The translations under genes and the position numbers were made by a program. A model generated the notes under the pieces. That model saw only the letters and a program-made list of their open reading frames with translations, made no database searches and was not told where the DNA came from. Below, piece after piece: positions 2,323 to 5,652 of a stretch of DNA of 5,747 nt. Origin of the DNA: a virus (Duplodnaviria > Heunggongvirae > Uroviricota > Caudoviricetes). The first letter of the stretch is position 1, and the number at the start of each line of letters is the position of its first letter. The stretch is taken from IMG/VR virus record IMGVR_UViG_2617270951_000013. One strand, 5' to 3'.

Positions 2323-2577
2323 TTACATCATGGTACTGTCAGTTCCGGGCTGAGCCGGGTCTGGTTGCTCTGGCTGCGCGTCGGTTTTCGGCTCATTATC
2401 AGCATCACTGGCCGCAACTGCTGGCCCAATAAGTTTTGCCAGCACTTCATCAACGTAAGTGTCGATTTGTGCCTCAAAATCCTTGCGGACCTGCGCTTTC
2501 AGCAACTTATTTACTTCACCGGAATACAGTGCCTGTTTTACCAGGTCTTCAGTGACGGTGCCTTTAATTTCTGGCAT
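2323..2577 (-). CDS. Hypothetical small acidic protein (84 aa) with predicted N-terminal amphipathic helix and Pro/Asp/Glu-rich tail
   Basis: ATG 2577..2575 preceded by a strong SD AAGGAGGA (2590..2583); net acidic composition (about 16 D/E vs 8 K/R); TAA stop 2325..2323. Confidence 0.6.
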   Translation of the reverse strand: MPEIKGTVTEDLVKQALYSGEVNKLLKAQVRKDFEAQIDTYVDEVLAKLIGPAVAASDADNEPKTDAQPEQPDPAQPGTDSTMM

Positions 2578-2612: not shown

Positions 2613-2795
2613 TCAGGGCTGGGTCGGGTCTTTTGGGAGCGGAGTTACCTGCGCTGTTTTACTGAGTTTTTCAGCTGCTGCGTCCTCAATTTTGCGGCGA
2701 ACATAATTTCTGATGGCCTTATAACCACCACTCACCAGATATAACGCACATACTGCCGTGCAGAAATACAATAAAATAAGCTGTAAAAATGTCAT
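2613..2795 (-). CDS. Hypothetical small membrane peptide (60 aa): one N-terminal hydrophobic helix plus a basic/charged tail
   Basis: ATG 2795..2793 just downstream of GGGAGGG (2805..2799); product MTFLQLILLYFCTAVCALYLVSGG... then KAIRNYVRRKIED...; TGA stop 2615..2613. The track ORF starts at a TTG (2807) that lies inside the SD, so the ATG is preferred. Confidence 0.5.
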   Translation of the reverse strand: MTFLQLILLYFCTAVCALYLVSGGYKAIRNYVRRKIEDAAAEKLSKTAQVTPLPKDPTQP

Positions 2796-2810
2796 TATCC
2801 CTCCCAATTA

Positions 2811-2827
2811 TTGACATGGTGTTGACA
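2811..2827 (+). promoter_or_regulatory. Two tandem consensus -35 hexamers (TTGACA at 2811-2816 and 2822-2827); candidate plus-strand promoter with only weak -10 candidates
   Basis: Exact TTGACA twice, 11 bp apart. Downstream -10 candidates are imperfect: TAATAT at 2832-2837 (15-bp spacer from the first hexamer) and TAAAAA at 2846-2851 (18-bp spacer from the second). Confidence 0.25.
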
Positions 2828-2890
2828 CCGGTAATATCTGTTAGGTAAAAAGGTGCACTGCATTTTTTGCTTTGGATATAACGATCTTTT

Positions 2891-2932
2891 TGCCGCCGGT
2901 TTCTTGTTTTCCCTTACCGGCGGCATTTTTTT
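2891..2932 (+). terminator. Strong plus-strand rho-independent terminator
   Basis: Perfect 10-bp GC-rich stem TGCCGCCGGT (2891-2900) / ACCGGCGGCA (2916-2925), 15-nt loop, then T7 (2926-2932). On the minus strand the stem is followed by A-runs, so it is oriented for plus-strand transcripts only. Confidence 0.6.
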
Positions 2933-2939
2933 ATCCTGC

Positions 2940-4994
2940 TTACGCGTTATTCACTTCCACCACGATACTGTCAATCAGTACCGGGTAAGTCGCATTTTTA
3001 GTGATATCGGTCACGCGCAACTTGTCTGCCGTAAACGTGCCGACCGGAGACTGCGACAGCATGAATGGTGTCCCGTCCTTACCATCAATGACCGGCGTCA
3101 CCTCAATACTGTTGTTACCGGCAAAACGGAAGCCCAGCGTATGCCATTCGTTATTAAATGCGCCGAATGACCCCAGCTTCGTGTTCTGCGCCGTGTTTCC
3201 TTTGTGATACATCACGTTAAGGTCTGTGGCATCGCTCTGTACGTAAAACGATGCCAGCAGGTTATGACCGGCATTACCTTCCAGTGTGACGCCCTGAGGA
3301 AGCGAAGAAACCGGCCAGTACAGCGCCAGTGCGTACTGATTAGCCGTAAGCGCGCCATCAAGTTTAAAACGACAGCTGACAAGGCCACCTTTTTCCAGCA
3401 GGTCGGCACCATTACCGGCATCATGCTCAAGGTACCAGGGGGCTCTTCCTGTTTCCTTAGTCATTTTCATTGCCTTACCCCCGCTGGCTCCGGCATCATC
3501 CACGATTTGAGCCTTGCCACCTCCGGCAGCCCAACCCTGTGGTGTCAACCGTCCTTCAGACTCAGATGCCCGGTAAGCAAATAGCGTACTCATCGTCGTG
3601 GTGTCTGCGGGTGGCGTGGACGGTTTTGATGGTGTATCAGGTGACGGCTTCTCATCCGGTGGTGTCACGGTCTGCCCGCGCATCAGTTCAGCCGTGCGCC
3701 CTGCATGGAGCATAATAGCTGAGGCCAGACGGTCTGAAATGACGCCCCTGCGTGCCCATGAGCTGAAATGGCTGTCACGCTGTGTCGAAACAAAACTGCC
3801 CTGGGTTCGGGATGCTGCACCGTAATACCCGACAGCCACAATATCCGGGTCTTCCGCCGGAGCATTCGTTGGCGTGCTCTGTCCATTCTCATCCGTCAGG
3901 AACGGTACAAAGAAAATTTTCTGTGCTTCCTTGCCTTTGTAGCCACCGTATACTGCCTCATATTTATCGGTGCCAGCGTTTTTCCAGTAATACGTGGTAT
4001 CACCGCAAATCCACGGCACCGTGGTGGCATTTCCACTCACGCACTGCGCAGCAAGCGGAGCCAGGTCAGTTCTGAACTGCTGAACCATGGCCGTGAATAA
4101 ACTATTATGCTGCTGGCTTCCTGAGGCAAGGTCTGCCTCTCCCTGCATCCAGACCACAGCCAGAAGTTTGTTTTTCGGGTTTTTCGCCAGCGCGACTTTG
4201 GTGCGGCTTACCAGGTCCTGATACAGAGGTTTACCGGCCCCCCAGCGTGAAGAATCAGCGGAAGCACCGCTGGCCTCACTGAATGAGCCGTCGGCTCCAG
4301 TGGTGAATGCTGACCCGCCACGACAACAGGGCACCAGAAGTATCCCGGCATTCTGTGGGATATAGGGAAGCAGTTTTTTGGCAATATGCAACCCCTGACC
4401 GACAGTCCCGTACTGGCCTTTTGCCAGATCAGCTTTCGGGTGGTTTATCCCGCTCATATCCTGAACATCATGCAGGCAGTGGTCTGCCGGAATGATGTCG
4501 TTGTATGTACACGACGTACCGTTGGGCGTTACCGTACTGCGGCGTGCCAGTTGCTTAATGCGTGGGTCCGGGCGGTCAAACGAATCCGGTAACGGCAGCC
4601 CCTCGCCGTAGGCCATGCCATTTGACTGACCCGCGAGAATGACAACAAAGTAATATTCCGGCTCTGAACTGCTGCCATTCGTGCTACCGGAAGGCCCGGC
4701 GTTATCCGGTGCATTCCAGTCGGAGGGCGTGAGCGTTCCGGCCACGTCAGATGTGATTGGAATGATGCCAGTCACGCCTGAACTGGTGATTTCTGCACTG
4801 GGATTACCGGATACCGGCATTACCCATAATGGCTCTTTCGTGCTGAAGCGGATCACGCAGTCTGCGAAGGTGATCCCCCCTTTATTACCCGAAGGGCGGA
4901 AAGGGCTTTCAATAAATGCCACCGTGCCACCGGCAACCTTGACTGAAAACTCTCCGGGCATGGCGGAGAGCATTTTCCACTTGGAGTCTGACAT
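2940..4994 (-). CDS. 684-aa multidomain esterase: N-terminal ~110-aa domain, SASA/SGNH-type carbohydrate esterase domain (sialate O-acetylesterase-like, comparable to prophage NanS-p), Pro/Ser/Thr-rich linker, C-terminal ~200-aa beta-rich putative lectin domain
   Basis: ATG 4994..4992, TAA 2942..2940. GQSN motif (residues 122-125, nt 4631..4620) and a downstream QGEAD block, which I recall as SASA-family hallmarks; linker TVTPPDEKPSPDTPSKPSTPPADTTT; C-terminal region rich in beta-type residues with no catalytic motifs. Confidence 0.8.
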   Translation of the reverse strand: MSDSKWKMLSAMPGEFSVKVAGGTVAFIESPFRPSGNKGGITFADCVIRFSTKEPLWVMPVSGNPSAEITSSGVTGIIPITSDVAGTLTPSDWNAPDNAGPSGSTNGSSSEPEYYFVVILAGQSNGMAYGEGLPLPDSFDRPDPRIKQLARRSTVTPNGTSCTYNDIIPADHCLHDVQDMSGINHPKADLAKGQYGTVGQGLHIAKKLLPYIPQNAGILLVPCCRGGSAFTTGADGSFSEASGASADSSRWGAGKPLYQDLVSRTKVALAKNPKNKLLAVVWMQGEADLASGSQQHNSLFTAMVQQFRTDLAPLAAQCVSGNATTVPWICGDTTYYWKNAGTDKYEAVYGGYKGKEAQKIFFVPFLTDENGQSTPTNAPAEDPDIVAVGYYGAASRTQGSFVSTQRDSHFSSWARRGVISDRLASAIMLHAGRTAELMRGQTVTPPDEKPSPDTPSKPSTPPADTTTMSTLFAYRASESEGRLTPQGWAAGGGKAQIVDDAGASGGKAMKMTKETGRAPWYLEHDAGNGADLLEKGGLVSCRFKLDGALTANQYALALYWPVSSLPQGVTLEGNAGHNLLASFYVQSDATDLNVMYHKGNTAQNTKLGSFGAFNNEWHTLGFRFAGNNSIEVTPVIDGKDGTPFMLSQSPVGTFTADKLRVTDITKNATYPVLIDSIVVEVNNA

Positions 4995-5069: not shown

Positions 5070-5099
5070 CAAAAAAGCGTCACGGTACTTTTGGTGACG
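5070..5099 (-). terminator. Candidate minus-strand intrinsic terminator overlapping the invertase stop codon
   Basis: 6-bp stem CGTCAC (5078-5083) / GTGACG (5094-5099), 10-nt loop; on the minus-strand RNA it is followed by CUUUUUUG (5077..5070). The stem is short, so confidence is modest. Confidence 0.35.
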
Positions 5100-5652
5100 G
5101 AGCTGGTGAGGCAGGAAAATAACGATAAAGGGGGGAAAGGCCAATATCAAATATCAGTGCGATTTGTTTACGGGACTCGCCATTAGCCAGCAAACGGGCG
5201 ATTTGCTCCCGCTCTTTCTCTGTCAGTTTCTGAGGTCTGCCGCCATGACGCCCCTGAGCACGGGCAGCAGCAAGACCCGCGCGTGTACGTTCAATAATGA
5301 GTTCCCGCTCCATTTCCGCCAGCGCGCCCATTATATGGAAAAAGAAACGTCCCATGGGAGTGGATGTATCAATATTGTCCGTAATGCTGCGGAAGTTAAC
5401 GCCGCGTTGCCGGAGTTCTTCTGTTAAAAGGACAAGGTGCTGCATACTGCGTCCAAGGCGATCCAGTTTCCAGACCAGCAGGGTATCCCCTGGCCGGAGT
5501 CGCTTTAATGCGCGTTTAAGTCCGGGACGCTCCCTTGTCTTACCGCTTATTCTGTCTTCGAAAAACAGCTCACATCCTGCACATTCCAGCGCATTTCTTT
5601 GTAGCGCCGTATTCTGGTCATTTGTTGACACCCTGATATACCCAATCAGCAT
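5080..5652 (-). CDS. Serine-recombinase DNA invertase of the Gin/Pin/Cin/Hin family (190 aa)
   Basis: Product begins MLIGYIRVSTNDQ (catalytic Ser motif) and carries GYIRVS, LDRLGRS and a C-terminal HTH-like region; ATG 5652..5650 preceded by AAGGA with a 6-nt spacer; TGA stop 5082..5080. Confidence 0.92.
   Translation of the reverse strand: MLIGYIRVSTNDQNTALQRNALECAGCELFFEDRISGKTRERPGLKRALKRLRPGDTLLVWKLDRLGRSMQHLVLLTEELRQRGVNFRSITDNIDTSTPMGRFFFHIMGALAEMERELIIERTRAGLAAARAQGRHGGRPQKLTEKEREQIARLLANGESRKQIALIFDIGLSPLYRYFPASPAPSPKVP

Follow-up and report, generated by a model that had tools for sequence, protein, structure and literature searches.

A probable Mu-like-phage allele of the small RNA EcOnc33 at the esterase/DUF1378 junction of an Escherichia coli prophage

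Results

Layout of the esterase/DUF1378 spacer

The DNA analysed here, in its whole length of 5,747 nucleotides (nt), is the viral record IMGVR_UViG_2617270951_000013 and is referred to below as the window. It contains part of a Mu-like prophage of Escherichia coli, and our subject is a short plus-strand unit in the spacer between two minus-strand genes of that prophage, which encode an esterase and a 60-amino-acid (aa) DUF1378 protein. We compare this unit with EcOnc33, a small RNA (sRNA) of E. coli O157:H7 strain Sakai. A preliminary description had proposed a small autonomous transcription unit at this place, divergent from the 60-aa gene and convergent on the esterase stop codon. This layout is borne out by the DNA, since the DUF1378 gene begins with an ATG at 2795 and the esterase gene ends with a stop codon at 2940-2942. 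The features of the spacer and of the two genes that border it, as read directly from the DNA or predicted, are as follows.

2613..2795, minus strand: DUF1378 gene, 60 aa, with a ribosome-binding site GGGAGGG at 2799-2805; divergent from the sRNA promoter
2811..2816, plus strand: distal TTGACA, the upstream half-repeat, 11 nt before the -35 hexamer
2822..2827, plus strand: TTGACA, the -35 hexamer of the sRNA promoter, invariant in 12 type-1 variants (see below)
2846..2851, plus strand: -10-like hexamer TAAAAA, non-canonical, with A at -7; spacer of 18 nt from the proximal TTGACA
about 2858..2932, plus strand: predicted sRNA of 75 nt, homologue of EcOnc33 (68 of 82 aligned columns identical)
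2858..2877, plus strand: predicted single-stranded 5' seed, CUGCAUUUUUUGCUUUGGAU, matching EcOnc33 at 19 of 20 nt, with U for G at position 7
2891..2932, plus strand: intrinsic terminator, with a 10-bp stem, a 15-nt loop that holds the invariant CUUGUUUUCCCU, and U7
2940..4994, minus strand: esterase gene (SASA and DUF6645 by Pfam, and annotated as such in RefSeq in an identical copy), 684 aa; the sRNA converges on it

Both TTGACA hexamers are exact and lie where the preliminary description had placed them. Their frequency is unremarkable (7 copies in the window against 3.8 +/- 1.9 expected, with 15 of 200 shuffled sequences reaching 7), so that the weight of the two hexamers comes from their conservation rather than their number. 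The distal copy, which in the window is part of an 11-nt duplication, cannot serve as a -35 element because it lies 29 nt from the -10 hexamer, which is too far. The -10 element had been called weak, and TAAAAA is indeed non-canonical.

The terminator reported at 2891-2932, with its GC-rich stem of 10 bp and its T7 tract, also stands. A general terminator scan missed it because the loop limit of that scan is 8 nt. In contrast, a custom scan of both strands (stem without mismatch, 9 bp or longer, including 6 or more GC pairs; loop no longer than 16 nt; 7 or more T among the 9 bases that follow) returned this site and no other, against an expectation of 0.003 per first-order Markov window. The left arm, TGCCGCCGGT (2891-2900), pairs perfectly with the right arm, ACCGGCGGCA (2916-2925), across a loop at 2901-2915; the T tract follows directly at 2926-2932 and ends 7 nt before the esterase stop codon. 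Viewed on the minus strand, the hairpin has A7 before it and AAAAAG after it. The U-tract is thus present on the plus strand only, which means that the hairpin terminates plus-strand transcripts only and cannot be the terminator of the esterase gene. The predicted 75-nt RNA as a whole folds at -23.0 kcal/mol (z = -4.6).

The statement that the unit is free of plus-strand open reading frames needs correction in the letter, since frames called mechanically do start inside it (GTG, 2853-3170; TTG, 2872-2988). Its substance holds: both frames run through the terminator, and the indels that separate homologues include lengths that are no multiple of 3 (1, 2 and 5 nt), so that the stretch is non-coding.

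Homology to EcOnc33 of E. coli O157:H7 Sakai

Positions 2796-2945 have a match covering 80% or more of the spacer in 355 E. coli genomes. In 326 of these genomes the best match is 80-90% identical, its type being the O157 spacer between ECs_1527 (esterase) and ECs_1528 (DUF1378). The Sp6 prophage of strain Sakai carries this commonest form, and its spacer is 81% identical to that of the window. In data from Hfq-CRAC (cross-linking and analysis of cDNA; Tree et al, 2014, PMC4104026), the Sp6 spacer ranks 16th among intergenic regions, with >99% of its reads on one strand. This is the genome minus strand, because known sRNAs (ryhB, sroC and oxyS versus spf, ssrA and micA) calibrate the table; the flanking genes lie on the genome plus strand, so that the Sakai RNA is antisense to both. 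Table S2 of the same study places EcOnc33 on the minus strand of Sp6, flags a terminator for it, records it in five of five datasets and gives its size on a Northern blot as about 71 nt.

The coordinates in Table S2 refer to an older genome version, and Rfam matches for AsxR, Esr41 and EcOnc03 put the offset to NC_002695.2 at about 135-140 nt. The tables from RNase E-CLASH (cross-linking, ligation and sequencing of hybrids; Waters et al, 2016, PMC5286369, Table EV7) print read sequences of EcOnc33; what we say of CLASH, here and below, applies to the two parts of that table covered here. One read, CTGCATGTTTTGCTTTGGAT, occurs verbatim in the Sakai spacer, at 4197-4216 of our locus L001. An intramolecular hybrid, CCTGCCCCGGCGGCCTTT+ATTTGCCGCCGGTTCTGG, joins both arms of the EcOnc33 terminator and is likewise found verbatim in L001, at about 4227-4272. 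These verbatim reads fix the genome-version offset at exactly 140 and place EcOnc33 at about 4197-4276 of L001.

The window RNA and EcOnc33 are 83% identical, and blastn aligns 2858-2884 with nt 1-27 of EcOnc33 at 96% identity (E = 5e-9), with further collinear pieces. Both lie at the junction of an esterase stop and a DUF1378 start, antisense to both genes, and both have the promoter TTGACA-18-TAAAAA, a 5' end CUGCAU.UUUUGCUUUGGAU, a stem GCCGCCGG/CCGGCGGC, the loop core and a U7 tail. The segment of EcOnc33 that acts as seed in CLASH hybrids, CUGCAUGUUUUGCUUUGGAU, differs from the window RNA only by G7 to U. Outside the seed, the window RNA has a shorter loop that lacks a CUGGCUC insert, and its stem has gained a U-A pair at each end, giving 10 contiguous pairs as against 8 in Sakai. 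The hosts of the two copies also differ, EcOnc33 lying in a lambdoid prophage and the window copy in a Mu-like one.

We conclude that the plus strand at about 2811-2932 most probably forms a gene complete in itself, which encodes a regulatory RNA of about 75 nt and is allelic to EcOnc33. The autonomous unit of the preliminary description is strongly supported by this homology and by the shared position of two further RNAs, PasA and PasC, described below. The window element appears, from its sequence, to be a Mu-like-phage allele, with a variant seed, of a known but barely characterised class of Hfq-dependent prophage sRNAs. It is the Mu-like-phage copy that is new here; the kind of RNA is already known. 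EcOnc33 itself has remained an uncharacterised entry in supplementary tables: no Rfam family covers PasA, PasC or EcOnc33, and our literature search gave no paper with EcOnc33 in its main text. A prediction made from sequence is in this way anchored in existing Hfq-CRAC, Northern and CLASH data.

Conservation of the promoter and of the RNA

The EcOnc33-like alleles, including that of the window, are here called type 1. Across 12 aligned type-1 variants no change is seen in the -35 hexamer, the A-run of the -10 hexamer, most of the 5' segment CUGCAU.UUUUGCU..GGAU, the stem or the loop core CUUGUUUUCCCU. This conservation holds despite indels adjoining the loop, and the core itself is unaltered in all 12 variants although indels flank it, which suggests that it has a function of its own besides that of the seed, such as contact with Hfq or a further seed.

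We then compared promoters across 12 alleles of wider diversity, comprising type 1 (with the window), a longer type 2, the form at locus L040, PasA, PasC and a second unit downstream of PasA. In all 12, TTGAC[A/T/G] precedes an A-rich hexamer by 17-18 nt (18 nt in 11), and [T/C/G]A[A/G]AA[A/C] stands at the same distance from the -35 element, examples being TAAAAA, CAGAAA and GAAAAA. A TTGAYA or ATGACA element lies 11-12 nt 5' of the -35 hexamer in most of them, including PasA, PasC and type 2; variants H96 and H97 are without the 11-nt duplication and keep a single TTGACA. TAAAAA is identical in Sakai, whose RNA is expressed, and we regard the promoter as probably active in this phage too. 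The RNA-seq coverage of PasA and PasC begins at a homologous CUGC, 5-6 nt downstream of the A-rich hexamer, and the EcOnc33 portion of a CLASH hybrid with arcA begins at the homologous CUGC as well. The 5' end of the window RNA is therefore predicted at C2858.

Among IMG/VR records we found 66 loci with 17 distinct versions. In every version a hairpin is retained, with a folding energy of -14 to -22 kcal/mol and U6-8 after it. Versions with a short loop, like that of the window, lie next to Mom or Gin in 14 of 20 cases, and those of the long-loop Sakai type next to holin and lysozyme in 43 of 46. A scan of species-representative genomes with the type-1 terminator pattern gave no match, so that the element appears confined to strain-specific prophages. 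Some type-1 alleles contain an internal duplication of the seed (CUGCAUUUUUUGCU CAGCAUAUUUUUGCU AAGGAU), namely those at L044 (H97), L049, L046, L066 and related loci.

Relation to PasA, PasC and other named RNAs

PasA and PasC of enteropathogenic E. coli (EPEC) E2348/69 are abundant in Hfq RIL-seq (in which interacting RNAs are ligated and sequenced), and Northern blots confirmed their sizes and their Hfq-dependent stability (Pearl Mizrahi et al, 2021, PMC8550237). They are annotated between a sialic-acid esterase gene and lysis genes in the order '> < >', antisense to both, and an arrangement of esterase, PasA or PasC, holin and lysozyme has since been described by Zhu, Shabalina & Storz (2026; bioRxiv 10.64898/2026.05.13.724894). 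The order of esterase, antisense sRNA and lysis region agrees with that of the window at the esterase junction, and in PasC the terminator abuts the esterase stop. The promoter, TTGACA-18-CAGAAA, is again followed by 5-6 nt and a 5' CUGC, and the RNAs are of similar size (79-85 nt, as against a predicted 75 nt here). In contrast, the RNA bodies and terminators (AGCCAGCG/CGCTGGCU) are unrelated to those of the window. Indeed, blastn-short with a word size of 7 found no match to PasA or PasC at 2808-2935, and the window RNA was rejected as a variant of either. Since Zhu et al define Pas variants by a blastn match with query coverage >75%, the window RNA would be missed by such criteria. EcOnc33 and the PasA/PasC locus are thus tied together by position, orientation and promoter, and it follows that surveys in which 'Pas' is defined by BLAST would miss at least one further allele class at this junction.

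The E2348/69 prophage PP2 holds a second unit of promoter and terminator downstream of PasA, at 2467-2600 of L003, which abuts the esterase stop. The 236-nt minor species of PasA is explained by read-through to this second terminator.

In Rfam, even at a permissive threshold, the window RNA matched only Esr41 (RF02676), at 22.2 bits (E = 0.73) against a gathering threshold of 102 and 108.6 bits for a genuine Esr41. It was rejected as generic because promoter and body differ and the match lies only in the U-rich body and the terminator. AsxR, AgvB and Esr41 (RF02703, RF02702 and RF02676) resemble the predicted window RNA in being Hfq-dependent sRNAs of prophages or islands of enterohaemorrhagic E. 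coli, and several of this group are antisense within the late 'moron' region. However, AsxR and AgvB lie upstream of the esterase gene and act as sponges of the core sRNAs FnrS and GcvB, and Esr41 sits in SpLE1.

Two further arrangements share features with the window. OOP of phage lambda is an RNA of about 77 nt that has a promoter to itself, ends at a strong intrinsic terminator and is read in the direction opposite to the phage operon around it, as predicted for the window RNA; OOP overlaps the end of the cII coding sequence and acts in cis through RNase III, whereas the window RNA ends 7 nt before the esterase stop codon and the action of its relatives is in trans, with Hfq. In the pairs IstR-1/tisB and OrzO/zorO, a small RNA gene is divergent from a gene for a small hydrophobic peptide. 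The layout in the window is the same, but the RNA is without trans complementarity to the leader of the peptide mRNA, and its relatives are bound by Hfq and have partners in the core genome.

Candidate targets and proposed mode of action

In the two parts of the CLASH table covered, the best-scoring partner of EcOnc33 is ECs5359, which is arcA, with five unique hybrids, replicated and in both orientations (false discovery rate 2.7e-4). The arcA half of the hybrid (AUUUAGGUAGCAAAC-AUG-CAGACCC) spans the ribosome-binding region and the start codon. A hybrid with dps uses the same segment of EcOnc33, so that the 5' stretch of about 20 nt behaves as a seed. We predicted duplexes with the 5' 34 nt of the window RNA and with the corresponding stretch of about 32 nt of EcOnc33. 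EcOnc33 and arcA give -22.4 kcal/mol (z = -3.0). Three other variants give z between -2.4 and -2.8 and H97 gives -0.8, so that four of six variants fall between -2.4 and -3.0. Of 5426 E. coli genomes, 5424 have the arcA site with an identity of 99% or more.

These data are consistent with an Hfq-dependent, trans-acting sRNA for which arcA is the leading candidate target. On such a mechanism, transcription would start about 6 nt after TTGACA-18 nt-TAAAAA, at or next to C2858, and would stop at the U7 of the GC-rich hairpin, short of the esterase stop. The 3' hairpin with its U-tail and the U-rich body would bind Hfq, as in the relatives, leaving the unstructured 5' end to base-pair in trans with mRNAs of the host. 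The best candidate among these is arcA, at its ribosome-binding and start-codon region, where pairing would be expected to repress it. The gene would travel within a module of esterase, sRNA, DUF1378 and DUF826, either in lambdoid (Stx-type) prophages or between gin and com/mom of a Mu-like prophage. If the interaction with arcA is genuine, the prophage would carry an RNA that controls a global redox regulator through a target site found in essentially all E. coli.

Several points weigh against this interpretation. The direct record of expression, both as an RNA of about 71 nt and as an Hfq-crosslinked species, belongs to the Sakai homologue, in its lambdoid prophage. The -10 hexamer is without the usual T at -7, and one paper suggests that the 5' end of PasA may come from processing rather than initiation. 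Type-1 stems are nearly invariant and offer little true covariation, with only one-sided changes and the compensatory differences seen in type 2; the support for the structure accordingly lies in its conservation and in the intramolecular hybrid from CLASH, not in statistics. The link to arcA comes from a high-throughput table, and we found no reporter validation of the interaction. Finally, the predicted duplex of the window variant with arcA reaches only -17.5 kcal/mol (z = -1.8), with 5% of shuffled sequences doing as well, because the change of G7 to U puts a U opposite a C.

Two pairings within the window were also noted. The one between the seed and the start region of the esterase gene (-21.9 kcal/mol, z about -2.8) was dropped, since it is not conserved in five other variants. 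The seed (5' 34 nt, 2858-2891) also pairs with the com start region (1600-1700) at -25.3 kcal/mol (z = -4; none of 200 shuffles reach this value), by UGCUUUG with CAAAGCA next to GGAGG and by CUGCAU with AUGCGG, in the ribosome-binding and start region. An interior loop of 29 nt interrupts this duplex, nothing independent supports it, and we record it as a note only.

Of the alternatives to a trans-acting RNA, the one that survives best is action mainly in cis, in the manner of lambda OOP, on an mRNA that reads through from esterase into DUF1378, though we consider it improbable as the principal mode. A duplex would then lead to RNase III cleavage, or head-on transcription to interference, and the effect during lysogeny would be to limit expression of DUF1378 and DUF826 and, in lambdoid phages, of the lysis genes that lie downstream. 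The RNA is, by geometry, fully complementary to a read-through transcript, itself hypothetical. DUF1378 is probably co-transcribed with the esterase gene, since a consensus scan, which cannot exclude weak promoters, listed no sigma-70-like minus-strand promoter in 2796-2939, and the hairpin would let minus-strand transcription pass. Moreover, the sRNA keeps its place and orientation while one body can stand for another (type 1, type 2, PasA, PasC, L040 form), and the RIL-seq partners of PasA include the 3' ends of both esterase mRNAs. However, the relatives are bound by Hfq and have trans partners in the core genome, and seed and terminator loop are conserved far beyond the need of a purely antisense RNA. 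A Mu-like phage has no PR' late transcript, and no cis hybrid was seen in the two parts of the CLASH table covered. Action in cis is compatible with a trans role.

It is far less likely that the spacer holds a terminator or insulator alone, directed against stray plus-strand transcription antisense to the esterase gene, with TTGACA not serving as a promoter. The preliminary description had allowed for such a guarding terminator, and the non-canonical -10 hexamer and the insignificant frequency of TTGACA would fit it. Against this, hexamer, spacer length and A-rich -10 element are conserved across alleles with detected transcripts, and the promoter is closely followed by the 5' ends of PasA and PasC and by the start of the CLASH read in the arcA hybrid. 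The segment from promoter to terminator is also conserved, and the hairpin, with its U-tract on the plus strand alone, is fed by a sole conserved plus-strand promoter about 65-70 nt upstream.

Least likely of all, and in our view very nearly dismissed, is the analogy first drawn with type I antitoxins, in which the RNA would control DUF1378 as a 60-aa membrane-peptide toxin: the divergent layout and the hydrophobic N-terminus of the small neighbour recall tisB/istR-1 or zorO/orzO, but the proposed pairing with the 5' untranslated region of the 60-aa gene amounts, for the seed against the non-overlapping DUF1378 leader and start, to -9.2 kcal/mol, worse than shuffled sequences (-13.5 +/- 2.9; 96% as good or better) and thus no complementarity beyond chance, the consensus scan listed no promoter of DUF1378 in the spacer (weak ones can escape it), PasA fills the equivalent esterase-holin spacer in EPEC without an annotated DUF1378 gene, DUF1378 is a syntenic late-region gene of no known function ahead of holin in many phages, and EcOnc33, like the other relatives, is an Hfq-associated RNA with trans partners.

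Different RNA bodies at the junction

At L023-L034, L038 and L040, upstream of DUF1378, we found the same promoter together with a related terminator (CCCGCCAG...CCGGCGGG). The 'type 2' alleles among these have a different and longer body of about 120 nt, and L040 is a further form; neither matched any named sRNA. Where type 1 has G-C as its basal pair, type 2 has C-G, and in L038 an A-U pair replaces an A.C mismatch.

A tentative extension of the above is that the esterase/DUF1378 junction serves as an 'sRNA socket' for interchangeable RNA bodies, that the module has crossed from lambdoid to Mu-like phages and that the EcOnc33 type represses arcA. The fixed parts would perhaps be the promoter (TTGAYA half-repeat, TTGACA, 18 nt, A-rich -10), the orientation and a terminator that abuts the esterase stop. 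The bodies that might be exchanged between them would be PasA, PasC, the EcOnc33 type, type 2 with its 120 nt or so, and the L040 form. If this holds, a transposing prophage would retune the aerobic/anaerobic (ArcA) regulon of its host wherever it inserted.

The Mu-like prophage and its cargo module

Positions 1-585 of the window are the 3' part of the core gene malX, and the right end of the Mu-like prophage begins at 586 (TATAGCGCGGCGATTTTTTTGATACC...). This end sequence agrees with that of Mu_JNE082796, where the boundary is the depositors' own annotation. The junction with malX is absent from the complete E. coli genomes in the collection that we searched, and strain JE86-ST05 (NZ_AP022815, locus 100% identical) carries the identical module in a Mu-like prophage that lies next to rhsC/ybfB; different chromosomal sites are as expected of a transposing phage. 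On the minus strand, toward the prophage end, the gene order by Pfam is Gin-type invertase, esterase, DUF1378, DUF826, Com and Mom. Two of these genes, beyond those given above, are placed as follows.

2323-2577, minus strand: DUF826 (Pfam)
5080-5652, minus strand: Gin-type invertase (Pfam)

The block of esterase, DUF1378 and DUF826 is a late-region module of lambdoid Stx-type prophages, where it lies ahead of holin. Pfam and phage comparison give no known function for DUF1378, which has a hydrophobic N-terminus. The module with its sRNA is standard cargo of the Mu-like phage lineage too. A hairpin at the 3' end of gin is weak (z = -0.9), and we do not call it a terminator. A 97-aa open reading frame at 1862-2155 on the plus strand is opposite to all its neighbours; it has no Pfam or PHROG family, and RefSeq annotates it in JE86-ST05 as a hypothetical protein.

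A diverged version of the module is present in L112 (LC727881, Mu_JNE082796), with identities of 66% for esterase, 74% for DUF1378, 70% for DUF826, 78% for Gin and 98% for Com; Mom has no match there. Such divergence indicates that the module is a long-standing cargo of this Mu-like lineage. Loci L049 and L072 combine a Mu-like Gin or Mom, 100% identical to the window proteins, with lambdoid holin and lysozyme, and may be recombinants through the common esterase module or nested prophages.

Finally, a perfect palindrome, AATCGATCGAC...GTCGATCGATT, occupies 1649-1673 of the window; it contains two GATC sites and lies about 45-70 nt upstream of the codon at which com probably starts. Our scans flagged it only as terminator-like and as a weak Rfam match to IS102; it recalls the Dam-methylation-sensitive control region of Mu mom.

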